Assembly: GCA_938074535.1 (NCBI GenBank)
Contig: CALJER010000008.1
Coordinates: 1 to 64,000 of the forward strand
DNA: 64,000 nt
DNA from: an uncultured archaeon
GTDB lineage: Archaea; Hadarchaeota; Hadarchaeia; Hadarchaeales; WYZ-LMO6
Direction: 5' to 3'
Shown here one piece after another: positions 39,201 to 49,972 of the stretch (its first letter is position 1; every line of letters starts with the position of its first letter). A program made the position numbers and the translations under genes. The notes under the pieces were generated by a model, which was not told where the DNA came from, made no database searches, and worked only from the letters and a program-made list of their open reading frames with translations.

Positions 39201-39950
39201 TCAGGGGGGTAGATACCCCAGTCTCCGGAGGAGTTCCCCCACCCCCAGCAGGGCCGGGGCATCCCCGCGCAGCTGGAAGATGGTTCGCCCCTCCCTGTCC
39301 AGCTCCTCCACCTCTTTGTCCTCCGGCACCCTCCCAAGGACTTCCATGCCTACAGGTACCTCCACCTCCTCCCCCCCCTTCATCCTGTTCAGAACCAGCC
39401 CCGCCCTCCTGTACTTCACCGCCCCCCTGTCCGCCACCCCCTTTATGGTGAAAGCCACTCCCAGCGACCTGGGAGAGGGGTCGGAGACCAGCAGTAGGTC
39501 ATCCACCTCCCTCATCACCCTCCGGTTGATCTGCTCCACCCCGGCCTCCCCGTCTATCACCACCACCTCGAAGCTCCTGGAGACCGAGGTGAGGATCTCC
39601 CTCAGCAGCTCGTTGACCCTGCAGTAGCATCCCTCCTCCTCGGGCCTCCCCATCGCCAGCAGCGAGAATCCCCTCCTCTCCTCCATCACCCCCAGCACCC
39701 CGTAGTCCAGGGAGAGGGCGAGCTCCTCCCGGCTCACCTTTCCCAGGGAGGAGATCCATTCCCTCCTCAGGTCCTCCACCGTCCTCCTCACCTCCACCCC
39801 CAGGGCCTGGGAGAGACCCGAGGAGGGATCCGCATCCACCGCGAGCACCCTCCTCCGGCCACCCTCCACCAGCAGCCGCAGGGAGGCTGAGGCCAGGAAG
39901 GTCTTCCCCACGCCCCCCTTCCCGCAGAAAACCATCACCCCTTCCCTCAC
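39201..39950 (-). CDS. CooC/AcsF-like nickel-insertion ATPase
   Basis: GKGGVGKT, VDADP, MGRPEEEGCYC (CxC), IDGEAGVEQINRR, LVLNR. Confidence 0.88.
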   Translation of the reverse strand: MREGVMVFCGKGGVGKTFLASASLRLLVEGGRRRVLAVDADPSSGLSQALGVEVRRTVEDLRREWISSLGKVSREELALSLDYGVLGVMEERRGFSLLAMGRPEEEGCYCRVNELLREILTSVSRSFEVVVIDGEAGVEQINRRVMREVDDLLLVSDPSPRSLGVAFTIKGVADRGAVKYRRAGLVLNRMKGGEEVEVPVGMEVLGRVPEDKEVEELDREGRTIFQLRGDAPALLGVGELLRRLGYLPP

Positions 39951-40657
39951 TTCTTCCCCTCCCTCAGCATCCTATCCCTTATCGCCCTGAGCTCCGCCAC
40001 GCTCCCGCACACCTCCCTGTAGTCGCATCTGTCGCAGTCCAGCGAAACCTCCTCCACCATCTTGCCCACGGCCCCCGCTATCTTCCTGGCCTTCTCCCCA
40101 AACCCCCAGAGGGCCCTCACGCCCTCCTCGCAGGTGGAGAAGACCACCTCCGCGGAAGACAAGGGGAAGCCGGAGCGCAGGGCCCTCAGGAGGGCCCCCC
40201 CCACCACGGAGAGGGAGAGGCCCCTCTCCACCGCCTCCCTGCTCACCCTGCTCCAGGCCTTCAGCTGGGAGGGCAGGCCCCTGACCATGTACCCCCTGAG
40301 CCCGATCCTGAGCGGAGCCAGGTTCAGCCTCCGGTACTCCTCATCCCTGACCTCCCTCGATTCCACCAGACAGAGCTGGGCGAAGGGGACCACGCCCCTC
40401 AGCCGCGGCAGGTCCTCCCCCCACAGGCTCACCCTCCCCTCCTCCACCAGCCCGGGAGTCTCGGTGAGGAGAACCGAGGAGAAGGAGGGGAGCTCCGGCG
40501 GACCGAGCTCCACCCACGTATCCTCCTTCAGAACCACGCCGGATTCCCCCAGGAAGCCGTCCGGGTCGAGGGGCGTGAGCCTCCTCACCCTCCCCCCGCT
40601 TTCTCCCCTTTTCAGAAGCTCCCGCAGGGACCTCAGGTCCTCATCGAAGAGCTTCAT
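39947..40657 (-). CDS. Truncated acetyl-CoA synthase beta (CdhC)-like protein with C-terminal CxxCx5C motif
   Basis: KEDTWVELG...VEEGRVSLWGEDL...PFAQ and GYMVRG...WSRVSREAV resemble the CdhC N-terminal domain. A-cluster domain absent; ends with LDCDRCDYREVC. Confidence 0.65.
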   Translation of the reverse strand: MKLFDEDLRSLRELLKRGESGGRVRRLTPLDPDGFLGESGVVLKEDTWVELGPPELPSFSSVLLTETPGLVEEGRVSLWGEDLPRLRGVVPFAQLCLVESREVRDEEYRRLNLAPLRIGLRGYMVRGLPSQLKAWSRVSREAVERGLSLSVVGGALLRALRSGFPLSSAEVVFSTCEEGVRALWGFGEKARKIAGAVGKMVEEVSLDCDRCDYREVCGSVAELRAIRDRMLREGKK

Positions 40658-41426
40658 CCGCCCTCTCCCGCGCGAGCAGGCAGGCCCCGTAGGCCCCCGC
40701 CAGGATGGGGTCCAGCGGGAGCCTCCTCACCTTCCTCCCCAGTTGCTCCTCCAGGGCCCTCACGAAGCTCTCCAGCCTGCTCACCCCTCCGGCCACCACC
40801 ACCTCCCCCCTCATCCCCACCTTCCTCACGATGGAGGAGACCCTCCCCGCGATGGCCCTGGTGACGGCGGCCACGACGTCCTGCACCTCCTCCCCCTCGT
40901 TCAGGAGGGCCACCACCTCGCTCTCGGCGAAAACCGTGCACTGGGAGGTGATGGAGAGTTTCTTGGTGGAGCGAGACACCGCCTCGTCCCACTCCTCCAG
41001 CCCTATGCCCAGGGCTTCCCCCAGAAGCTCCAGGAACCTCCCCGCCCCGGCCGCGCACCTGTCGTTCGTCCCGTAGTCCACCACCCTTCCCCCCTCCATC
41101 ACCGCCACCCTGGTGGTGTTGGCCCCCACCTCCACCACCGTTCCGGCCTCGGGAACCAGGGAGCTGCACGCCCTGGAAAGGCAGAGAAGGACGGGTCTCT
41201 CCTCCCTGACGAAGTCCAGACCCCTCACCCTCTCCCCCGTCCCCACGCAGTAGGCCACCTCCTCCCACCTCCTCCCGGCACCCTCCAGCGCGAGGGCGAA
41301 GGCACGCTCCGCCGTCTCCCTGGCCCTCGGCCCGGTCTCCAGGACGGCGTGGCCCAGAAGGGAACCATCTTCCATGAGGAGGGCCTTCACCCTCCCGCTC
41401 CCCACGTCCAGTCCTCCCACCAGCAT
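40641..41426 (-). CDS. CoA-enzyme activase (BadF/BadG/BcrA/BcrD ATPase family), degenerate paralog
   Basis: GLDVGS, GTG, NDRCAAGAGRFLE, CTVFAESE, GGV, GAYGA. VEVGANTT replaces the usual DIGGQD. Confidence 0.88.
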   Translation of the reverse strand: MLVGGLDVGSGRVKALLMEDGSLLGHAVLETGPRARETAERAFALALEGAGRRWEEVAYCVGTGERVRGLDFVREERPVLLCLSRACSSLVPEAGTVVEVGANTTRVAVMEGGRVVDYGTNDRCAAGAGRFLELLGEALGIGLEEWDEAVSRSTKKLSITSQCTVFAESEVVALLNEGEEVQDVVAAVTRAIAGRVSSIVRKVGMRGEVVVAGGVSRLESFVRALEEQLGRKVRRLPLDPILAGAYGACLLARERADEALR

Positions 41427-42208
41427 CAGCTTCCCCCCACCTTCTGCCTGGCGAAGAGGGCCGCCCCGAGGGCCCCCACCAGCTGCGGGTCGAAGTCCAG
41501 CCTGAGGAGGGGGACCCCCAGCATCTCCTCCAGGTACCTCACCACCCCCACGTTCTTCGCCACCCCTCCGGAGAGGACCACCTCCCTCTCCACCCCCATC
41601 CTCGAGGCCAGCGCCTTCACCCTCGCCGCCATGGCCTGATTCACACCCGCCGCCACATCCTCGGCGCTGGCACCCTCAGCCAGCTGGGAGAGGACCTCCG
41701 ACTGGGCGTAGACCGCACACACGTTGGTGATGGGTATGGGCCTCCTGGAGGAAAGGGAGAGCCTTCCCAGCTCCTCCACTCCCACTCCCAGCGTCTTGGC
41801 CATCAGCTCCAGGAACCTCCCCGTTCCCGCCGCGCACTTGTCGTTCATGACGAAGTTCAGCAGCCTTCCCTCCCCGTCCACCCTTATCACCTTGCAGTCC
41901 TGCCCCCCTATGTCTATCACCGTCCTCACGGAGGGAAGGAGCCAGTGGGCACCCTTTCCGTGGCAGGAGATCTCCGACACGTTCTCCCCCGCGAAAGGAA
42001 TCCTCACCCTGCCGTAGCCCGTCCCCACGCAGTAGGCCACCTCCTCCCACCTCCTCCCCGCCTTCCTCAGCGCCTCCTCCATCACCTCCCTGGCCGAGAG
42101 CTCCGGTCTGGGTTTGACCCTCCTCACCTCGTGGGAGAGGATGCGCCCGTCCTCCAGCAGGACGGCCTTGGCGGTGAGGGAGCCCACGTCGCAGCCTGCC
42201 ACCAGCAT
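41426..42208 (-). CDS. CoA-enzyme activase (HgdC/BcrA-type ATPase)
   Basis: DVGSLTAK, TGYGR, EISCHGKG, DIGGQDCK, MNDKCAAGTGRFLE, CAVYA, GGVAKN. Confidence 0.93.
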   Translation of the reverse strand: MLVAGCDVGSLTAKAVLLEDGRILSHEVRRVKPRPELSAREVMEEALRKAGRRWEEVAYCVGTGYGRVRIPFAGENVSEISCHGKGAHWLLPSVRTVIDIGGQDCKVIRVDGEGRLLNFVMNDKCAAGTGRFLELMAKTLGVGVEELGRLSLSSRRPIPITNVCAVYAQSEVLSQLAEGASAEDVAAGVNQAMAARVKALASRMGVEREVVLSGGVAKNVGVVRYLEEMLGVPLLRLDFDPQLVGALGAALFARQKVGGS

Positions 42209-42209
42209 G

Positions 42210-43577
42210 CTAGCCCAGTCCCATCGTTTCGTTGAACTCCAAAATCCTGCGCTTGATCTCCGAAACGGGGCTGACCCTGAAGTCCCAGGAGTCAGCCTCC
42301 AGCCTGAGGCAGGGCAGGCCCGTCTCCCTCTGGAGCGCCCTTATGAAGGCCTGGAAGCCCCCCCAAGTGTTCTTGCAGGCAGGATGGCCGGCGAACACGA
42401 AGCAGTCCCCTCCCCACTGCTCCACGCACCACACGTAGTCCTCCAGCCACTGGTCGGGCAGATCCACAGGCCCCCTCTGCTGCCTGGTCATGGGGTAGCT
42501 CCAGCACCTCTGCGCCAGCCCCTCCAGCATGGTGTCCAGGGAGGAGGTGTCGATGGGTTTCTCCGCGTGGAAGAGGGTGAGGACGTCCACCACGTAGCTC
42601 ATCCCGTTCTCCTCCAGCCAGAACCAGAGGTCCATGCTGGGGGGGTAGAAGCCCGTGTACACCCAGATCTGCCTGATGCGCTCCTCCGGCTTCGCTCCTT
42701 CCCCCTTCCTGAGCCTGTCCTTGGAGGCCTCCAGCACGGCCTCGAAGACCCTGGTCCCCTGCGGGGTCCCCACCGAGCTGAACTTCACGCCCTGGAGGAA
42801 GATGTTGAAGGAGGAGTGGACGGGGTTGGGGCGGGCCCTCTTCAGGTCATTTATCTCCAGGTAATACTTCCTGCACTTCTCGCTCTCCTCCACCACCTCC
42901 CTCAGCCTCTCCTCCTCCAGTTTCTTCCCGGCGAACTCCTCCAGCCTCCTCACCTGGTGCCTGTACTCCTTCGTGTAGTAGTCGAAGGCCCTCTCCCCGT
43001 GGTAGGTGGGACAGTCTATCCCCAAATAGGGAACACCCAGGCGGACCGCCATGTACTCGTAGAGCTTGGAGTTGGCGTCGCAGCTTCCTGGGGCGGCGGT
43101 AACCACCAGATCCGGGCGCAGGCCCAAGCCCTTCAGGATGGCCCCGCAGGCTGCCCTCTGGGAGGTGCACATGGTCTCGAGCAGTCCCTCCTCCACGCTC
43201 CAGTCGAAGTAGACGTGGGGATCCTCGAGGAAAATGGTGGCGAAGGAGGTGAGGACCTCCGGCACCAGCGGGACGAGGTCCAAAGCGTAAAAGACCTCCG
43301 GGGCGGTGTTGAAGCTGGAGAGCACCACCTTCTTTCCCTCCTCCCTCGCCCCCCTCAGCATCCCGAGATACCAGGCCGCCCACCTAGAGACCTCCAGGGC
43401 CACCCTCCGGATGGCGGGGTCGGAGAGGAAGAGATGCCTCAGGACCTCGGCCTGGGAGGGAACGGCCGCCACCAGGTCCTCCATTTCCCTCTCCGTAACG
43501 TCCTCGGGGATGGAGGAAGCCGTGGAAAGAAGGATGAAGAGCCTCTCCTCGAGCGGCAGCTGCCTAGCCTCTTCCAC
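42210..43577 (-). CDS. 2-hydroxyacyl-CoA dehydratase / benzoyl-CoA reductase family subunit (HgdA/BcrB-like)
   Basis: PEVFYALD, MCT, SCD..K, LEEFAGKK, C-terminal ACK...GLPCLRLEAD..D; about 70-aa N-terminal extension. Confidence 0.85.
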   Translation of the reverse strand: MEEARQLPLEERLFILLSTASSIPEDVTEREMEDLVAAVPSQAEVLRHLFLSDPAIRRVALEVSRWAAWYLGMLRGAREEGKKVVLSSFNTAPEVFYALDLVPLVPEVLTSFATIFLEDPHVYFDWSVEEGLLETMCTSQRAACGAILKGLGLRPDLVVTAAPGSCDANSKLYEYMAVRLGVPYLGIDCPTYHGERAFDYYTKEYRHQVRRLEEFAGKKLEEERLREVVEESEKCRKYYLEINDLKRARPNPVHSSFNIFLQGVKFSSVGTPQGTRVFEAVLEASKDRLRKGEGAKPEERIRQIWVYTGFYPPSMDLWFWLEENGMSYVVDVLTLFHAEKPIDTSSLDTMLEGLAQRCWSYPMTRQQRGPVDLPDQWLEDYVWCVEQWGGDCFVFAGHPACKNTWGGFQAFIRALQRETGLPCLRLEADSWDFRVSPVSEIKRRILEFNETMGLG

Positions 43578-43899
43578 CAGCCTCCCTCCTCTCGGCCAGC
43601 CTCCTCAGCTCCCTCTCCTCCAGCCTCGGGCGGAGGTAAATCGCGTACCCACCCTGGGTCTTCTCCACCATGAGCTTCCATCCGCCCTTCTCCCCCTCCT
43701 CCCTCTCCGACTGTCCTCTCACCACCCTGTCCAGCATCTCCTCCATCCCCTCCAACAGCTCCCTGGGAAGTCTGGACCTGAAGTCGGGGCAGATCCTGGT
43801 GCTGGCGGGGTTCTCCTCGCTCCCCTTCAGCTGACACCTTATCCTCTCCCACTCCATCCACGCGGCCCAGAAGCAGTCACCGCACCTAACGGGGCTCAT
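43564..43899 (-). CDS. Small Cys-rich hypothetical protein within the dehydratase/reductase operon
   Basis: MSPVRCGDCFW...RCQ...ICPDF. ATG overlaps the upstream stop (ATGA); SD-like GGGGAG. Confidence 0.7.
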   Translation of the reverse strand: MSPVRCGDCFWAAWMEWERIRCQLKGSEENPASTRICPDFRSRLPRELLEGMEEMLDRVVRGQSEREEGEKGGWKLMVEKTQGGYAIYLRPRLEERELRRLAERREAGGRG

Positions 43900-45029
43900 C
43901 TCCCCAGCCTCTCCAGGAAGGCCTGGATTCTGGTCCTGATCCTCCCCACCTCCGCCAGCGGGCCGTACTGCCTCTCCAGGAGCAGAGTGGGCACCCCCTC
44001 CTCCTCCAGCCTCCTGGCGAAGAGGGTGTTGTCTCCTCCATGCGTGTCGCAGAACTTCATGTGCTCCAGGACCACTCCTTCCACCCTCCATTCTTTGATG
44101 AGCCTCCTCAAAAAGTTGAGCTTCCTCTCGAACTCCCCATAGGTCCTGGCGCAGGGTACGTGGTAGTAGTACCTCCTCACCAGGGCCTCAAAGGGGTCCC
44201 CCCCCTCTTCCACCATGTCCACGATGGACCTCATGCCGAAGCAGAGGGAGTCCGTGACCACCAGGCCCCCCTGCCCCTCTATCACCCTCACCAGCTCCGG
44301 ATCGTCGTTCACGCTCCCCACGAGCATCAGCCTGGTTCCGGAGTACTCCTTTCCCCTCTCCTCCACTTCCTCCAGCGCTTCCTCCAGCAGGCGGTTGTAG
44401 ACCTCCCTTCTCACAGCCGTGCTCGCCACGTGGAGGGCCAGGGCCTCCTGCCCGGAAACAGGGGGTCTCTCCCTCTTTCTCCTTTCGTTGAGCTCCAGGA
44501 GGAGCCTCCTCCCCCTGTTGTACTCCCTGATGGCCTCCTCCAGCTTTTCGGGAGAGAGCTCCGTCCCGAAGTGCCCCTCCATGGCCTTCAAAAGGGAGAA
44601 GATCTCGCCCCGGTAGAACTCCAGCCCGTGCTCCGTGAGGGTGTGGGGGATCCCAAAGTAGTAGAAGAAGGGGGGGAGGTTCCCCGCCGCCTTCCAGCAG
44701 TCGTACATCCTCCTCACATGATCGCAGGTGCGGGAGATCACGGCCCCATCCAGGAAGTCGTACCTTCCCTCCAGCACCAGCTGCAGGCAGCAGCGCGTGT
44801 AGCTGCAGTTGACGGGACCGTACCAGGCGTCCGCCAGGGAGGTTCCTGAGCAACCCGTCCCCCTGATCCTGAAGGGAAGCATGCCCAGGGCGTGGACGAG
44901 CTCTTCCGGGAAGTAGCTGCAGGTGTAGCCCACGACCCTCCCTCCTCCCCTCTTCCACTCTTCCAGCAGGGGATTGGAGATCCCCGAGGAGACCCGCTCC
45001 AGGGCTTCTAGACTTCCCACTTCAAACAT
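43896..45029 (-). CDS. 2-hydroxyacyl-CoA dehydratase / benzoyl-CoA reductase family subunit (HgdB/BcrC-like)
   Basis: VGYTCSYFPEEL, NCSY, TCDHVRR, DSLCFG, MKFCD, RTRIQAFLE. Start at ATG 45029. Confidence 0.88.
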   Translation of the reverse strand: MFEVGSLEALERVSSGISNPLLEEWKRGGGRVVGYTCSYFPEELVHALGMLPFRIRGTGCSGTSLADAWYGPVNCSYTRCCLQLVLEGRYDFLDGAVISRTCDHVRRMYDCWKAAGNLPPFFYYFGIPHTLTEHGLEFYRGEIFSLLKAMEGHFGTELSPEKLEEAIREYNRGRRLLLELNERRKRERPPVSGQEALALHVASTAVRREVYNRLLEEALEEVEERGKEYSGTRLMLVGSVNDDPELVRVIEGQGGLVVTDSLCFGMRSIVDMVEEGGDPFEALVRRYYYHVPCARTYGEFERKLNFLRRLIKEWRVEGVVLEHMKFCDTHGGDNTLFARRLEEEGVPTLLLERQYGPLAEVGRIRTRIQAFLERLGR

Positions 45030-45078
45030 GGTTCTTGCGGGCATAAATCTTTTTTTTTGAAGGGGCCAAGAAAAACCG

Positions 45079-46275
45079 ATGGGAGATAAGAAGGTGGTGG
45101 TCCTGGGAGGGGGCGGGGTGGTGGGAAGAACCGCCGTGAAGGACCTGGCCAAGAGCGGGGTCTTCTCGGAGGTGGTGGTGGCCGACAAGGAGGTGGAGAA
45201 GGCGAGGGAGCACCTGGAGGGAGTTCCCCGCCTCTCCTTCGTGAAGGCAGACCTCACGGAGTTGTCCATCCTCAGGGAGGTGATAAAGGGGGCGGACGTG
45301 GTTCTGAACACCGTAGGACCCTTTTACAAGTTCGGCCCCTTGCTCACGAGGGAGGCCATACGGACCGGGGTGAACTACGTGGACATCTGCGACGACTACG
45401 AGGCCACGCTGGAGCAGCTGAAGATGGACGAGGAGGCGAGGAAGAGGGGTGTGACCGTCCTCACGGGCATGGGCTCTTCACCCGGCGTGGCCAACGTGGT
45501 GGCCAAGTTCTGCTCCCAGTTGCTGGACCAGCCGGAGGAGATCCACATCTACCACATCCACGGGGGGGAGCCGGAAGAGGGGCCCGGGGTGATCTACCAC
45601 CGCATCCACTACATGACGGGAAAAATCCCCATGCTGAAGGATGGGAAGATGGTGTACTTCGGGTTCTTCAGTGAGGAAGGGAGAAGGGAAATAGAGGAAG
45701 TGGACTTCTACGAGCCCATAGGGGTGGCGAAGGTTTACCCCTACCCGCACCCGGAGACCATCACCCTCCCCAGGTACATCCCGGGCCTCAGGAAGGTCAC
45801 CAACAAAGGGTCCGTCCTACCCCTGGAATACTACGAACTGCTGCGGGAGGCCGTGAAGATGGGTTTAGCCGATGAGAAGCCCCTGAAGGTGGGAGGGGCC
45901 TCCGTGGCCCCCATCGACTTCCTGGTCTCCTTCGTCCTCTCCAAGAGGAAGGAATATGCGAGCAGGCTGCCTGAACCCGTGGGTTGCCTGAAGATCGTGG
46001 TGAGGGGGAGAAAGGGGGGAAAGAGGATGGAGTACAGGTTCGCCATCCCCTCCAGGGGTGCGGGTATGGGGGAGGGAACGGCCATTCCCGCCTCGGTGGG
46101 CACGCAGATGGTGGCCAGAGGGGAGATCGAGGAGAAAGGGGTCCTCCCCCCGGAGGCCTGCGTGGATCCCATGAAATTCTTCGAGGAGGCGAGGAGCAGG
46201 GAGGGGATGGGCGGCGTCAGGATCATCTTCGAGAGCGTGGACGAGGAGGGGAGGGTGACCAGCATACCCCTTTGA
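45079..46275 (+). CDS. Saccharopine dehydrogenase-like NAD(P)-dependent oxidoreductase
   Basis: VLGGGGVVG Rossmann motif, NTVGPF, YVDICDD, GMGSSPG, HPETITLP, GVLPPE. Confidence 0.88.
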   Translation: MGDKKVVVLGGGGVVGRTAVKDLAKSGVFSEVVVADKEVEKAREHLEGVPRLSFVKADLTELSILREVIKGADVVLNTVGPFYKFGPLLTREAIRTGVNYVDICDDYEATLEQLKMDEEARKRGVTVLTGMGSSPGVANVVAKFCSQLLDQPEEIHIYHIHGGEPEEGPGVIYHRIHYMTGKIPMLKDGKMVYFGFFSEEGRREIEEVDFYEPIGVAKVYPYPHPETITLPRYIPGLRKVTNKGSVLPLEYYELLREAVKMGLADEKPLKVGGASVAPIDFLVSFVLSKRKEYASRLPEPVGCLKIVVRGRKGGKRMEYRFAIPSRGAGMGEGTAIPASVGTQMVARGEIEEKGVLPPEACVDPMKFFEEARSREGMGGVRIIFESVDEEGRVTSIPL

Positions 46276-46312
46276 CCCAAGCCTTTTTTTCCTCCAGAAA
46301 ACCACTCTTTTG

Positions 46313-47611
46313 ATGTTCAAGTGGAGGGAAAAGGAGTACGAGGAGCTTGAGGCTCAGCCCGAGGCCCTCCCCGAGGGGGTGGATCCCGAGGAATACGTCA
46401 TCGCCACCTACTTCCTCTCCCTCCCCTCCGCCCTGGATCCCTGGGAGGTGGCTAGGGCCCTGGCCATAGAGCAGAGCACGGGAACCTGGGTGCCCGTTCC
46501 CGGGGAGACCCCCGAGGTGAGGAAGAAGCACGTGGCCAAAGTGGTGGGACTGTACGAGGCCCCCTATCCGGAAGTCCTCTCCCCCACGGAGGCCAGGGAG
46601 AGGAACTATGTGGTGCAAATCGCCTTCCCGCAGGTGAATTTCGGGAAACAGATCCCCATGCTCCTCTCCACGGTGGCGGGGAACCTGATGTGCTGGGAGA
46701 AGATCAAGCTCCTGGACCTCCGCTTCCCCAAGAGCTTCGTGGAGGGCTTCGGGGGCCCCAAGTTCGGGATAGAGGGGATAAGGAAGCTGCTGGGAGTGGA
46801 GGAGAGGCCCCTGATCAACAACATGATCAAGCCCTGCACCGGCTTTACACCCGACGTGGGTGCGAGGCTGGCCTACGAAGCGGCGGTAGGGGGAGTGGAC
46901 ATGATCAAGGACGACGAGCTACTGGGCAACCCCTCCTTTAACCCCATAGAGGAGAGGGTGCCGAAGTACATGGAGGCTCTGGACAGGGCGAACAGGGAAA
47001 AGGGGGAAAAGACCCTCTACACGGTCAACATCACGGACGAGGCCTCCAGGGTGATGGAGAACGCGGACAGGGCCATAGAGCTTGGGGCGAACGCCCTCAT
47101 GATCAACTATCTCACCGCCGGAATCTCCCTGCTCAGGGAGCTGGCGGAGGATCCAAGCATCAACGTCCCCATCCTGGCCCACATGGACTTCTCCGGCACC
47201 ATGTACGTCTCCCCCTACTCAGGCCTCTCCTCCTCGCTCCTGCTGGGGAAGCTGCCCAGGCTGGCGGGTGCCGACATCTTGGTCTACCCAGCACCCTACG
47301 GGAAGGCCCCCTTCATGAAGGAGAGATACGTGAGGATAGCCCACCACCTGACCTTTCCCCTCTACCACCTCCGCCCCACCTTCCCCATGCCCAGCGGGGG
47401 GATCACGCCCTCCATGGTGCCCGAGGTGGTGGGGGATCTGGGGAAGGACATCGTGATAGGGACGGGGGGAGGGATCCACGCCCACCCCATGGGTCCCAGG
47501 GCCGGAGCCAGGGCCTTCAGGCTGGCGGTGGAGGCGGTGATGAGGGGGATGAGCCTGCAGGAGATGGCCAAGGAGCACGAGGAGCTGAGGGTGGCCCTGC
47601 AGATGGGCTGA
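46313..47611 (+). CDS. RuBisCO-like protein (form IV RLP)
   Basis: EQSTGTW, GPKFGIEG, IKPCTG, DMIKDDE, YTVNIT, PSGG, GGGIHAHP. Lacks the second Lys of KPKxG, the Arg of HRA and His327 of true RuBisCO. Confidence 0.92.
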   Translation: MFKWREKEYEELEAQPEALPEGVDPEEYVIATYFLSLPSALDPWEVARALAIEQSTGTWVPVPGETPEVRKKHVAKVVGLYEAPYPEVLSPTEARERNYVVQIAFPQVNFGKQIPMLLSTVAGNLMCWEKIKLLDLRFPKSFVEGFGGPKFGIEGIRKLLGVEERPLINNMIKPCTGFTPDVGARLAYEAAVGGVDMIKDDELLGNPSFNPIEERVPKYMEALDRANREKGEKTLYTVNITDEASRVMENADRAIELGANALMINYLTAGISLLRELAEDPSINVPILAHMDFSGTMYVSPYSGLSSSLLLGKLPRLAGADILVYPAPYGKAPFMKERYVRIAHHLTFPLYHLRPTFPMPSGGITPSMVPEVVGDLGKDIVIGTGGGIHAHPMGPRAGARAFRLAVEAVMRGMSLQEMAKEHEELRVALQMG

Positions 47612-47620
47612 GGGGGTTCC

Positions 47621-49120
47621 TTGGGGTACATCCTGGCCCACGACCTGGGGACGGAGCTCAACAAGGCCGCCCTGGTGGACGAGGAAGGGAGGATAGTCGC
47701 CTACTGTACCCAGGAGTACCCCGTCTCCTATCCCAGGCCGGGGTGGGCGGAGCAGGATCCGGAGCTCTGGTGGGAGGCCGTCAGGGAAACCACGAAAAAG
47801 GTGCTGGAGCTGGCGGGGATCAAACCGGGAGAGGTGGAGGCGCTGGTCTTCGACAGCATGATGTACACGCTGGTGGCGGTGGACCGGGGAGGAAGACCGC
47901 TCAGGCCGGCCATCCTCTGGCTCGACACCAGGGCGAAGGCCCAGGCGGAGGAGCTGATGGGAAGCCTGGACCTGCTGGGGATGCTGGAGAGGGGGGTGAT
48001 CCCGCCCACCTCGGCCAAGGACATCACCCCGAAGATCCTGTGGGTGAAGCAGGAGGAGCCGCACGTTTTCGAGAAGGCCTGCTTCATCGACAGCAAGGAC
48101 TACCTGGTCCACCGGTGCGTGGGGGAGTTCTACACCGACTGGAGCTGCGCCAGCCTCTTCTGCCTCTTCAACTTCAGGGAGAAGAGGTGGGAGGAGGAGC
48201 TGGTGGAGGAAATGGGCCTTTCCCTGGAAAGGCTCTCCAGGCCCGTGAAGAGCACGGAGGTGGTGGGGAACCTCACGGAGGAAGCCTCCAGGGAGCTTGG
48301 ACTGCCCAGGAAGGTGGAGGTGGTGTGCGGGTCCGGGGACGCCACCGCGGTGGCGGTGGGAGCGGGGGGACCCCACCTGTACGTGGGGACCTCGGCCTGG
48401 ATAGGTGCCCACGTGGAGGAGCCCCTCTTCGACCTGACCGGCGTGGGCAGCATCTGCTCCGCCGATCCCTCCAGGTTCTTCCTGATAGGGGAGATGGAGA
48501 ACGCCGGGGCCTGCCTGAAGTGGTTCAGGGAGACCCTGGCCAGGGAGGAGAAGGAAAGGGCGGAGAAGGAGGGAAAAGGCCCCTACCAGCTGCTGGACGA
48601 GCTGGCCTCCGGTGCGGAGGCCGGGTCGGGGAAGCTCCTCTTCCTCCCCTGGATGATGGGGGAGAGGTGCCCCTTCACCCAGTCCACCGCCAGGGGGGCC
48701 TTCCTGAACCTCACCTTCGGGCACACCAAAGGGCACCTGGTGAGGGCGGTGCTGGAAGGGGTGGCCTACCACATGAGGTGGATCCTGGAGGTGGTGGAAG
48801 GGATGGGGCTCTCCCTCCCCTCCATCAGGGCCTGCGGCGGAGGGGCTAAGAGCGGGGTCTGGCTCCAGATCTTCGCCGACGTGATGGGGAGGAAGGTGGA
48901 GAGGGTCTCCTCCCCGCACCACGTGGGCTCGCTGGGAGCCGCCACCCTTGCCAGGGTAGGTCTGGGAAAGACGGACTTTTCCTCGGCGGAGAGGTCCGTG
49001 AAGGTGGAGGGGGAGTTCCTCCCCTCGGAGGAAAACCGGGACATCTACGACAGGATGTACGAGGAGTTCAGGGGGATGCAGGGGAGGCTGTCGGAGGTCT
49101 TCGAGCGCCTCAACACCTAG
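47621..49120 (+). CDS. FGGY-family carbohydrate kinase (xylulokinase-like)
   Basis: HDLGT, GWAEQDP, ILWLDTR, GSGD, GTS, FLPWMMGERCP, RAVLEGVA, GGGAKS..W.QI.ADV. Confidence 0.92.
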   Translation: MGYILAHDLGTELNKAALVDEEGRIVAYCTQEYPVSYPRPGWAEQDPELWWEAVRETTKKVLELAGIKPGEVEALVFDSMMYTLVAVDRGGRPLRPAILWLDTRAKAQAEELMGSLDLLGMLERGVIPPTSAKDITPKILWVKQEEPHVFEKACFIDSKDYLVHRCVGEFYTDWSCASLFCLFNFREKRWEEELVEEMGLSLERLSRPVKSTEVVGNLTEEASRELGLPRKVEVVCGSGDATAVAVGAGGPHLYVGTSAWIGAHVEEPLFDLTGVGSICSADPSRFFLIGEMENAGACLKWFRETLAREEKERAEKEGKGPYQLLDELASGAEAGSGKLLFLPWMMGERCPFTQSTARGAFLNLTFGHTKGHLVRAVLEGVAYHMRWILEVVEGMGLSLPSIRACGGGAKSGVWLQIFADVMGRKVERVSSPHHVGSLGAATLARVGLGKTDFSSAERSVKVEGEFLPSEENRDIYDRMYEEFRGMQGRLSEVFERLNT

Positions 49121-49539
49121 ATGTCCACGACCGCCTGGACGACCGTCCTGTCCTTCCCCCTCCTGACCTCCATCAGGTGGTAGGTCACGGCCTTGACCGC
49201 CGTTCTTCCCTCGTGCTTCCTCGGATCGAACCTCTCCCCCCAGGCCCTCCCCCTCAGCTTCCACCTGCCGCCCTCCTCCTCCACCTCCACACGGAAGCGG
49301 GAGAAGAGGAGGCCTTCGGCGTCCCTGAAGTAGAGGAGCCTGTCCAGCCAGTCGTAGAGGAGGGCCTGCTCGTCCTCCGCCTCCAGCTCCACCCCCACCT
49401 CCTCCCGAGCCTCCACCCTGCCCGTGTCCGTCATGACCTCGAAGAGGGCCAGGGCAGCGTTCTCGAAGGCCTCCCCCAGGTCCCTACCGTAGGCCCTGAA
49501 GCCCACGTCCGAGGGATGCTCCACCCACTCGAACTTCAT
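49117..49539 (-). CDS. Archease
   Basis: FEWVEHPSDVG, AFENAA, VKAVTYH, C-terminal VDI. Confidence 0.94.
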   Translation of the reverse strand: MKFEWVEHPSDVGFRAYGRDLGEAFENAALALFEVMTDTGRVEAREEVGVELEAEDEQALLYDWLDRLLYFRDAEGLLFSRFRVEVEEEGGRWKLRGRAWGERFDPRKHEGRTAVKAVTYHLMEVRRGKDRTVVQAVVDI

Positions 49540-49570
49540 CTTCCCAGCTTGGAGGATGGGGGGTAAAGGG

Positions 49571-49972
49571 TCATCGGCGGCCCCTCCTCTCCCTCTCCAG
49601 CAGCCTTCCAAGCTTCTCGTCCAGCTCCCTGATCCTTGCCTCCAGCGCCTCCGTCCCGGGAAGGCTGGTGCCGCGGAGGATGAGGCCTGCCAGCAGACCT
49701 ATGAGGCTGGCGTAGAGACAAATCCCGGAGACCATCAGACCCATCGCCAGGACCTTTCCCCCCGTGGTCACCACCACGATGCTCCCGAAGCCCACCGTGC
49801 TCTCGATGGAGAGGGCCAGGAAGAGGGCGTCCAGGAAACCCTTCAGGTTGGGGTTCTCGCCGCGCTCCACCGCATAGAGCACCAGCGCCCCCACCACCGT
49901 CACGAGAAGGAAGACCAGAACCACATAGCCCAGCCTGCTTCTCCTCAGAAAGCCCAGCACCCTTCTCACCAA
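49571..49972 (-). CDS. Two-TM potassium channel family protein (KcsA-like)
   Basis: TM1, pore helix FLDALFLA, filter STVGFGS, TM2 (GKVLAMGLMVSG), C-terminal coiled coil. Confidence 0.8.
   Translation of the reverse strand: MVRRVLGFLRRSRLGYVVLVFLLVTVVGALVLYAVERGENPNLKGFLDALFLALSIESTVGFGSIVVVTTGGKVLAMGLMVSGICLYASLIGLLAGLILRGTSLPGTEALEARIRELDEKLGRLLERERRGRR

Follow-up and report, generated by a model that had tools for sequence, protein, structure and literature searches.

The first 64,000 nucleotides of contig CALJER010000008.1 (the window, by which this whole stretch of DNA is meant), from an uncultured archaeon of the order Hadarchaeales, contain a real, intact operon of three genes, which encode a saccharopine-dehydrogenase-like oxidoreductase, a RuBisCO-like protein (RLP; RuBisCO, the carboxylase/oxygenase of ribulose-1,5-bisphosphate) and an FGGY-family carbohydrate kinase. 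By its profile scores, active-site residues and phylogeny the RLP represents a family that is related to the methionine-salvage enolase MtnW yet distinct from it, and this widespread family with its three-gene operon appears to be undescribed in the literature searched. We lean towards reading the operon as a three-step route, in which an amine or alcohol would give rise to a carbonyl (or be formed from it), a terminal hydroxyl would be phosphorylated, and the RLP would enolise the phosphorylated compound and resolve the enolised form.

The three genes lie in a tight row on the plus strand, in the order dehydrogenase-like gene, RLP and kinase, with spacers of 37 nt and 9 nt. A preliminary description of this DNA had recognised the pair of RLP and kinase, which stands, and had placed the kinase 9 nt downstream, in agreement with an RLP stop codon that ends at 47611 and a kinase TTG start at 47621. 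It had missed the dehydrogenase-like gene directly upstream (45079-46275) as well as the methylthioadenosine (MTA) phosphorylase and MtnA that are encoded elsewhere in the genome.

Relationship of the RLP to characterised families

The RLP belongs to the RuBisCO large-subunit superfamily, since both of its domains exceed the Pfam gathering score (RuBisCO_large, PF00016, 172.9 bits, 1.2e-50, cut-off 30.1; RuBisCO_large_N, PF02788, 46.7 bits, 4.5e-12, cut-off 20.7). It starts at the ATG at 46313, relatives begin at the same Met, and it is the sole RuBisCO-family gene in its own genome. An AlphaFold model (pLDDT 79.4) superimposes on RLP structures with a template modelling (TM) score of 0.85, and RLP and RuBisCO structures taken together give 0.81-0.85.

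The best matches of the RLP among NCBIfam models and among solved structures are to MtnW (2zvi, 295.7 bits, about 39% identity), yet it stays below the cut-offs of both MtnW models, with 378.8 against 409 bits for NF007095 and 337.4 against 513.6 bits for TIGR03332. The models of form III RuBisCO (279.8 against 497.45 bits), of the RuBisCO large subunit (256.7 against 438 bits) and of OiaX (NF042437, 194 bits, cut-off 700) are missed as well.

For phylogeny, 1.84 billion representative proteins were searched, which returned 2386 matches at E <= 0.001. Among the best 150 of these 2386, 90 proteins of 395-470 amino acids were labelled by NCBIfam; six exceeded an MtnW cut-off, five exceeded a form III or large-subunit cut-off, and four were OiaX-like yet below the cut-off. 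In a quick LG+G4 tree of 101 rows, supported by the Shimodaira-Hasegawa-like approximate likelihood ratio test (SH-aLRT) only, the window RLP falls in a clade of 16 (support 99) and all six MtnW-labelled rows fall in another clade of 14 (support 96). Both clades lie, together with several unlabelled lineages, within a clade of 52 rows (support 99). Forcing the window RLP together with the six MtnW rows, a group that was named after the tree had been seen, costs 289.7 log-likelihood units and gives p = 1.3e-5 in the approximately unbiased (AU) test. Grouping with a characterised clade, which the preliminary description had named as an outcome that would refute its proposal, is thus not observed, the RLP being separated from MtnW by score, residues, tree and AU test.

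No Rosetta-stone fusion of the window RLP family was found in a search for longer proteins, in which the three longer-protein matches all had at most 36% identity and came from other clades. A 1020-aa open reading frame (ORF) from Binatia (locus L058) was considered and set aside, as no extra Pfam domain precedes its RLP part and it is probably an ORF-calling artefact of high G+C. Outside the window RLP family, distant RuBisCO-family fusions were seen that join RLPs to a TIR domain (P0236, an odd combination) or a cupin (P0216), an IF-2B (isomerase) domain to RuBisCO (P0228, P0234), and RLPs to a DUF1537-type kinase (P0273, P0274).

Active site of the RLP

Twenty-one active-site columns were compared between 16 rows of the window family and five form III-labelled, six MtnW-labelled and the OiaX-like rows. 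Residue identities were read from the alignment, and the columns are given in spinach numbering. The motifs listed in the preliminary description were all recovered in the translation of 46313-47611, namely KPCTG (protein positions 173-177), KDDE (199-202), AHMDF (289-293), PYGK (328-331), SGG (361-363) and GGG (384-386).

The window RLP carries the residue of the spinach numbering at E60, T65, W66, N123, K175, K201, D203, E204, H294, K334, S379, G380, G381, G403 and G404, and a different one at T173 (Met, where the form III rows have Ile), K177 (Cys), R295 (Met), H298 (Ser), H327 (Val) and L335 (Ala). The residues of the metal site together with K175 and H294 correspond to K199, D201, E202, K173 and H290 of the protein, and they are kept in 15 or 16 of the 16 family rows, as are E60, K334, S379, G380, G381 and G403; N123 is Asn in all 16, G404 is kept in 15, and T65 and W66 are each kept in 14. 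The Lys of the metal site is predicted to be carbamylated.

Four residues of the carboxylase set are replaced. Cys175, Met291, Ser294 and Val324 of the window RLP stand where all five form III rows have Lys, Arg, His and His, and within the family the change of K177 to Cys occurs in 13 of the 16 rows, that of R295 to Met in 13 and that of H327 to Val in 14. Judged from the alignment, the window RLP lacks the complete set for binding ribulose-1,5-bisphosphate (RuBP) that forms I-III possess (K177, R295, H298, H327). The preliminary description had called the protein a form IV-type RLP without His327 and not a RuBP carboxylase, and both statements are borne out by these replacements.

The same columns separate the family from MtnW. 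All six MtnW-labelled proteins have Gly at column 60, Lys at 123 and Ser or Asn at 334, and the Lys at column 123 is the reported general base of the enolase. The OiaX-like relatives share E60, N123 and K334 with the window family and have Ser or Cys at 177. In the RuBisCO enzymes, Glu60, Asn123 and the loop-6 Lys334 position and stabilise CO2 and the carboxylated intermediate. At the distal-phosphate columns the family has Met, Ser/Ala/Thr and Val, and MtnW has Pro, Ala/Ser and Leu.

Taken column by column, the RLP retains its metal site and its proximal phosphate site, together with the residues by which the reaction centre is closed in RuBisCO, and the distal phosphate site has been replaced by small or hydrophobic residues. 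From these residues the substrate is read as a compound that probably carries a single phosphate and an uncharged tail, on which the RLP would act by enolisation, with addition or loss of a carboxyl group as a possible further step.

Family spread and conserved gene neighbourhood

Relatives with 60-79% identity occur across Chloroflexota, Asgard archaea, Bathyarchaeia, Archaeoglobi and Caldisericota. A word-indexed search gave 3403 relatives at E <= 0.001 among 8000 scored candidates, and the near-full-length relatives with 60-79% identity carry labels of Bathyarchaeota, Jordarchaeales, Thorarchaeota, Theionarchaea, Methanofastidiosa, Chloroflexota, Caldisericia and Acidimicrobiales. An alignment of 14 diverse members, whose identity to the window RLP is 62-79%, has 135 invariant columns. 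Many of the relatives are labelled as methionine-salvage enolase by the Joint Genome Institute (JGI).

A collection of species-representative genomes contained at least 576 matching stretches, of which the best 80 were taken with up to 8 kb on each side. After removal of one duplicate (L081, identical to L078), ORFs were clustered from 80 sources, that is, 79 public loci and the window (L001). Of these, 78 contain an RLP and 53 an FGGY kinase; the dehydrogenase-like gene occurs in 27, and 21 have a class-III aminotransferase (PF00202, 274 bits). In the public loci, the kinase orthologue is linked to the RLP in 52 of 79 and the dehydrogenase-like orthologue in 26 of 79. The dehydrogenase-like gene and the aminotransferase never occur in the same locus among the 80 sources.

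As many loci end at contig ends, a subset of 44 in which the RLP is flanked by 3 kb or more on either side was considered separately. The kinase is present in 35 of these (27/27 bacterial, 8/17 archaeal) and lies directly adjacent on the same strand in 22; the dehydrogenase-like gene is present in 18, the aminotransferase in 15, either of the two in 33, and any partner in 38. Conservation of the kinase linkage, which the preliminary description had made a test of its proposal, is therefore far beyond chance. Gene order varies: kinase, RLP and dehydrogenase in Dehalococcoidia; aminotransferase, kinase and RLP in Anaerolineae; dehydrogenase, RLP and kinase in the window and in Bathyarchaeia; and the outer flanks are unrelated.

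Linkage of the kinase is strong and not universal, given that it is missing in some genomes. All four Asgard genomes tested whose RLP has no neighbouring kinase encode one elsewhere, 45% identical and so at the same level as the linked orthologues, and in one Theionarchaea genome the kinase search gave weak matches only.

In a tree of 78 RLPs, the dehydrogenase/aminotransferase state changes at least four times among 47 rows, with RLPs that stay about 60% identical or more, and the nearest partnered neighbour of the window RLP from outside Hadarchaeales carries the aminotransferase. Repeated exchange of the partner among conserved RLPs suggests that the dehydrogenase-like enzyme and the aminotransferase do the same job.

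Further genes occur occasionally near the RLP, among them those for an MFS transporter, for an APC amino-acid permease (which follows the RLP immediately in the UBA186 locus), for a class I/II aminotransferase (flanked by the class-III aminotransferase and the kinase in a Baldrarchaeota locus), for a DUF401 membrane protein and for an HMG-CoA_red_N-like protein. The last of these, with the HMG-CoA reductase N-terminal domain (PF25653) and 118-135 aa long, lies directly after the RLP in a Theionarchaea locus (L025:9313-9669) and no more than a few kb from it at several loci of Anaerolineae (listed are L023, L031, L035, L037 and L040). In three Thorarchaeota-type loci a SAM hydroxide adenosyltransferase (SAM, S-adenosylmethionine; PF01887/PF20257) stands 3' of the dehydrogenase-like gene (L074:14746-15498, L075:12461-13210 and L080:12469-13218), and two archaeal loci (L003:9287-10885 and L005:3857-5008) have the aminotransferase version of the module together with further amino-acid-type genes, namely the permease of the UBA186 locus and the class I/II aminotransferase of the Baldrarchaeota locus.

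Distribution within Hadarchaeales

Among 41 Hadarchaeales genomes, RLP orthologues with 90-95% identity occur only in the genus of the window, in four of its five genomes including the window's own; the fifth is 88% complete and consists of 310 contigs. The three-gene arrangement is the same in every genome of the genus that has the RLP, and the dehydrogenase-like orthologue is found in all three of the others. The closest public record among the matches listed is a metagenome-assembled genome of Candidatus Hadarchaeales (L002), with 95% protein identity over the RLP and again 9 nt between RLP and kinase.

A divergent module is found in another Hadarchaeales family, where a 46%-identical RLP is accompanied by a dehydrogenase-like gene and one or more FGGY kinases (G033:C5:52660-57597), with a similar layout in a further genome (G035:C68:6-6473). 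Across these two loci the RLP is about 45%, the dehydrogenase-like protein 46-47% and the one or two FGGY kinases 41-48% identical to those of the window. A third locus (G027:C40:7181-12485) has the dehydrogenase-like gene and two kinases and no RLP at the threshold used, and the remaining Hadarchaeales genomes have RuBisCO-family genes of only 35-40% identity, or none at that threshold. The module is an accessory unit with a patchy presence across the order.

Partner enzymes

The kinase contains both FGGY domains above the gathering score (FGGY_N, 172.8 bits, 1.3e-50; FGGY_C, 116.5 bits, 1.7e-33), and its best solved relative is the xylulokinase of Escherichia coli (2itm, 206.7 bits). It is below the XylB cut-offs (TIGR01312, 326.8 against 380.25 bits; NF011601, 217.8 against 912 bits) and below that of the gluconokinase model (266.9 bits, cut-off 648.55). 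On these scores it is a xylulokinase-like member of the FGGY family, yet not XylB at the equivalog level.

The upstream gene belongs to the fold family of saccharopine dehydrogenase, carboxynorspermidine dehydrogenase and lysine 6-dehydrogenase (PF03435, 65.7 bits, cut-off 25.1; PF16653, 40.3 bits, cut-off 31). There is no equivalog-level match, the top one being carboxynorspermidine synthase with 31 bits against a cut-off of 800; the best matches among solved structures are distant (4ina, 64 bits; carboxyspermidine dehydrogenase 8deb, 51 bits; PH1688 3abi, 35 bits), and the ESM Atlas offers generic family names only. Mutual exclusion with the class-III aminotransferase in the 80 clustered sources suggests that the enzyme may act on a carbon-nitrogen bond. 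A second saccharopine-dehydrogenase-like gene, 38% identical to that of the operon, is present on another contig of the same genome (G000:C9:30679-31779).

A proposed pathway and its alternatives

Four kinds of observation underlie the proposal: the families to which the three proteins belong, the residues that the RLP has kept and lost, its separation from MtnW, and the conserved gene linkage. In the three-step route that we favour, the dehydrogenase-like enzyme would make a carbonyl (or, in the reverse direction, consume it) at a carbon that bears an amine or possibly an alcohol, and elsewhere the class-III aminotransferase would take its place. The xylulokinase-like kinase would then use ATP to place a phosphate on the terminal hydroxyl of the same small polyhydroxy compound. 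The single phosphate would be held in the P1 site of the RLP, where the metal site of carbamylated Lys, Asp and Glu (with Mg2+) would form an enediolate from the keto-phosphate. This enediolate would be resolved by isomerisation or by gain or loss of a carboxyl group, the latter option being considered because Glu60, Asn123 and the loop-6 Lys334 are all kept, and the product would enter central metabolism. The order of the steps, and with it the placing of the kinase before the RLP, as well as the direction and chemistry of the pathway, are what we infer from the sequences.

A pathway of kinase and RLP for a sugar or sugar acid had been put forward in the preliminary description. The pairing on which it was built is conserved, but the third, amine-type gene had been overlooked, and this makes a plain sugar or sugar acid improbable as the substrate; the compound probably carries, gains or loses an amino group. 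One idea is a ketosamine or an amino-polyol, from which either amine-type enzyme could yield the same dicarbonyl or ketose.

Several observations weigh against the three-step route. First, nine of the 17 long-flank archaeal loci have no linked kinase, and in two Archaeoglobi genomes and one Methanolliviera genome whose RLP lacks a linked kinase the best kinase match is only 35-37% identical. Second, some enzymes that do not act on amines have the saccharopine-dehydrogenase fold as well, so that the amine reading of the upstream enzyme depends on the exclusion between dehydrogenase-like gene and aminotransferase; this exclusion runs closely parallel to taxonomy (Anaerolineae versus Dehalococcoidia), and two separate pathways could lie behind it. 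Third, the kept E60, N123 and K334 do not prove carboxyl chemistry.

The alternative that survives best, unlikely in our judgement and still to be taken seriously, is that the module is a variant salvage of SAM by-products. The RLP would then act on a 5-methylthio- or 5-deoxy-pentulose phosphate, the FGGY kinase would phosphorylate the free thio- or deoxy-pentulose, and the aminotransferase or dehydrogenase-like enzyme would carry out the amination that ends the route, such as that of a 2-oxo acid to methionine. The RLP of Rhodospirillum rubrum acts on methylthioribulose-1-phosphate, and known methionine-salvage routes all end in transamination, a last step that would fit the aminotransferase. 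No large relative is nearer to MtnW than the window family, which lies with it in one clade of 52 rows and whose distal pocket is hydrophobic or small, much like that of MtnW; this pocket and the sister relation to MtnW keep the salvage explanation alive. Genes for MTA phosphorylase (292 bits, cut-off 274.85) and for MtnA (352 bits, cut-off 279) lie about 2 kb apart on contig C5 of the window's own genome, and MtnA is above its cut-off in nine of the ten module-bearing Chloroflexota genomes tested. On the other hand, no methionine-salvage (mtn) gene is adjacent to the module, as the preliminary description had stated, none lies within 10 kb in the window, and none appears among the clusters common to at least four of the 80 sources, for which Pfam typing covered 21 cluster representatives and 21 flank ORFs. 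MtnA exceeds its cut-off in 32 of the 41 Hadarchaeales genomes and the module (RLP of at least 90% identity) is present in four, so that the two do not track each other. Moreover, the window's own genome and nine of the ten Chloroflexota genomes tested have a class-II aldolase, by which pentulose-1-phosphates could already be consumed; the own-genome copy (contig C46) resembles ribulose-1-phosphate and fuculose-1-phosphate aldolases and is below all cut-offs. As MtnA and the aldolase are common genes, their distributions discriminate poorly either way.

A bolder version, which we hold to be improbable, makes the RLP a true carboxylase, or in reverse a decarboxylase, of a monophosphorylated keto compound with an uncharged tail. 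The amine-type enzyme would produce a dicarbonyl or ketose from a ketosamine or amino-polyol, the kinase would phosphorylate it, and the RLP would carboxylate and cleave the product, or decarboxylate it.

That the RLP is simply MtnW, the enolase acting on 2,3-diketo-5-methylthiopentyl-1-phosphate (DK-MTP-1-P), as the labels of several databases and the naming of many relatives by JGI have it, is very improbable: the top NCBIfam and structural matches do point to MtnW, but both cut-offs are missed, Asn replaces Lys at column 123, Glu and Lys stand where MtnW has Gly and Ser/Asn, and both the clade and the gene context differ. We give hardly any credence to a functionally meaningless adjacency of three genes from unrelated processes, for although the RLP stands alone at some archaeal loci, the three families recur around it in several phyla of both domains, in varied gene orders and between unrelated flanks, and they are found together once more with a 46%-identical RLP. 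A working RuBP carboxylase of unusual form can practically be dismissed, since the 16 of 21 active-site columns that match form III (K175, K201, D203, E204, H294 and K334 among them) are outweighed by the replacement of K177, R295, H298 and H327 throughout the family, by the low form III score, and by a genome in which no second RuBisCO-family gene occurs and the one IF-2B-family gene found scores as MtnA (352 bits) and not as the bisphosphate isomerase (205 bits, cut-off 314), though no search was aimed at the AMP phosphorylase or ribose-1,5-bisphosphate isomerase partners.

Operon anatomy and genomic setting

The features of the operon are collected in Table 1. The window is part of contig C8 of a 1.2-Mb genome that is estimated to be 93.6% complete; its G+C content is about 64%, and that of the operon (0.64-0.65) is the same as its surroundings, which gives no sign of recent transfer although the module is patchy within the order.

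Table 1. Features of the three-gene operon and its borders (window coordinates)
Feature	Position	Strand	Basis or remark
Divergent intergenic region, 49 nt	45030..45078		ATAAATC and T9 at 45044-45059; sequence read
Saccharopine-dehydrogenase-like NAD(P) oxidoreductase, 398 aa, first operon gene	45079..46275	+	PF03435, PF16653
T7 run within the 37-nt dehydrogenase/RLP spacer	46284..46290	+	Sequence read
RuBisCO-like protein (RLP), 432 aa	46313..47611	+	Pfam, profile scores, tree, active-site columns
GAGGGGG Shine-Dalgarno-like motif	47610..47616	+	Overlaps RLP stop codon, 5 nt before kinase start
FGGY-family carbohydrate kinase, 499 aa, TTG start at 47621	47621..49120	+	FGGY_N, FGGY_C
Archease gene, convergent	49117-49611	-	Overlapped by kinase 3' end

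The divergent intergenic region is likely to be the archaeal promoter region for the operon and for the minus-strand HGD-D gene opposite to it. The start of that gene is most likely the ATG at 45029, because orthologues of the same genus align in frame and with high identity only from about residue 95 of the long ORF. For the T7 run in the first spacer two roles are conceivable, that of an archaeal terminator and that of a TATA-like element from which a leaderless RLP mRNA would start. Among the sequencing runs listed as containing 45079-49120 there is no RNA run, and the only one is a DNA run that may be the source sample.

Neighbours of the operon include acyl-CoA dehydratase / benzoyl-CoA-reductase-like genes, archease, DUF1464, an ABC transporter and EF-1alpha. 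The housekeeping genes of the window are archaeal (EF-1alpha, RNA polymerase subunits, GatD/GatE, archease and an anaerobic ribonucleotide reductase), and the preliminary attribution to an anaerobic archaeon is in keeping with NrdD (893.7 bits, cut-off 548), radical SAM genes, EF-1alpha and the archaeal RNA polymerase. Immediately upstream of the operon, and divergent from it, lies a block of six genes on the minus strand (39201-45029), which encode two HGD-D proteins (of the 2-hydroxyacyl-CoA dehydratase / benzoyl-CoA reductase / double-cubane reductase type), two BcrAD/BadFG activator ATPases, a short CdhC-like protein and a CbiA/MinD-type ATPase, and by this composition the block looks like an ATP-dependent, low-potential reductase or dehydratase system.

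Significance

Few RLP clades have an assigned reaction, and every assignment so far has brought a novel pathway to light, namely methionine salvage, the MTA-isoprenoid shunt and branched-sugar catabolism. The present family is large (at least 576 genome stretches and 3403 proteins) and highly conserved in bacteria and archaea of anoxic sediments and hot springs. Assignment of its substrate would correct the JGI annotation as methionine-salvage enolase and would give the metabolic models of Hadarchaeales, Asgard archaea, Bathyarchaeia, Anaerolineae and Dehalococcoidia a further pathway. It would also show what role a RuBisCO-type site has when it possesses the CO2-handling residues and no second phosphate site, which bears on the origin of the carboxylase. 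Should the carboxylase version be true, it would be a second natural chemistry of carbon-carbon bonds with CO2 in the RuBisCO superfamily, outside RuBP, and an oxygen-independent route in anaerobes for glycated amines or amino-sugar alcohols.

No description of the module was found in the literature searched, which combined RLP with FGGY, xylulokinase, saccharopine dehydrogenase and aminotransferase, or Hadarchaeota with RuBisCO, and which mostly did not extend to subscription journals. Passages in three related reports (PMC7325909, PMC11650866 and bioRxiv 10.1101/2025.11.05.686826) concern other RLPs or nomenclature and not the module of the window.

Comparison with known systems

Form III RuBisCO, of the archaeal nucleoside or pentose-bisphosphate pathway, has the same fold as the window RLP and is identical to it in 16 of the 21 active-site columns; unlike form III, the window RLP is without K177, R295, H298 and H327 and is below the family cut-off.

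The 'DeepYkr' RLP of R. rubrum is distant in sequence (3qfw, 130.8 bits). In work by Erb et al. from 2012 it was reportedly identified as the methylthioribulose-1-phosphate isomerase of the MTA-isoprenoid shunt. Its substrate is a monophosphorylated pentulose with an uncharged tail, and its product is a derivative of xylulose-5-phosphate, such as a xylulokinase-like kinase would make. A cupin methylsulfurylase partner of the DeepYkr type was found neither in the window nor among the typed cluster representatives and flank ORFs.

The D-apionate pathways, which Carter et al. are said to have described in 2018, employ the RLPs OiaX (a decarboxylase) and OiaT (a transcarboxylase/hydrolase). They share their logic with the present proposal, in that an oxidoreductase yields a keto compound, a kinase phosphorylates it and an RLP acts on the keto-phosphate. 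As in the window RLP, the OiaX-like rows keep E60, N123 and K334 and have Ser or Cys in place of K177; unlike it, they keep R295 and H327 and belong to another part of the tree, and the window RLP reaches only 194 of the 700 bits required. The kinase of these pathways is of the DUF1537 family and not FGGY (compare the RLP-DUF1537 fusions mentioned above), and no amine-type enzyme is known in them.

The nearest characterised relative of the window RLP is MtnW/YkrW (Bacillus subtilis, 2zvi; Geobacillus kaustophilus, 2oek), with about 39% identity and a TM score of 0.85. Both have the metal site of Lys, Asp and Glu, both have K175 and H294, and in both the distal phosphate site has given way to hydrophobic residues. 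They differ in that the window RLP has Asn for Lys at 123, Glu for Gly at 60 and Lys for Ser/Asn at 334, scores below the MtnW cut-offs and falls in a separate clade, and whereas MtnW is linked to mtn genes, the window RLP is linked to an FGGY kinase and an amine-type enzyme.

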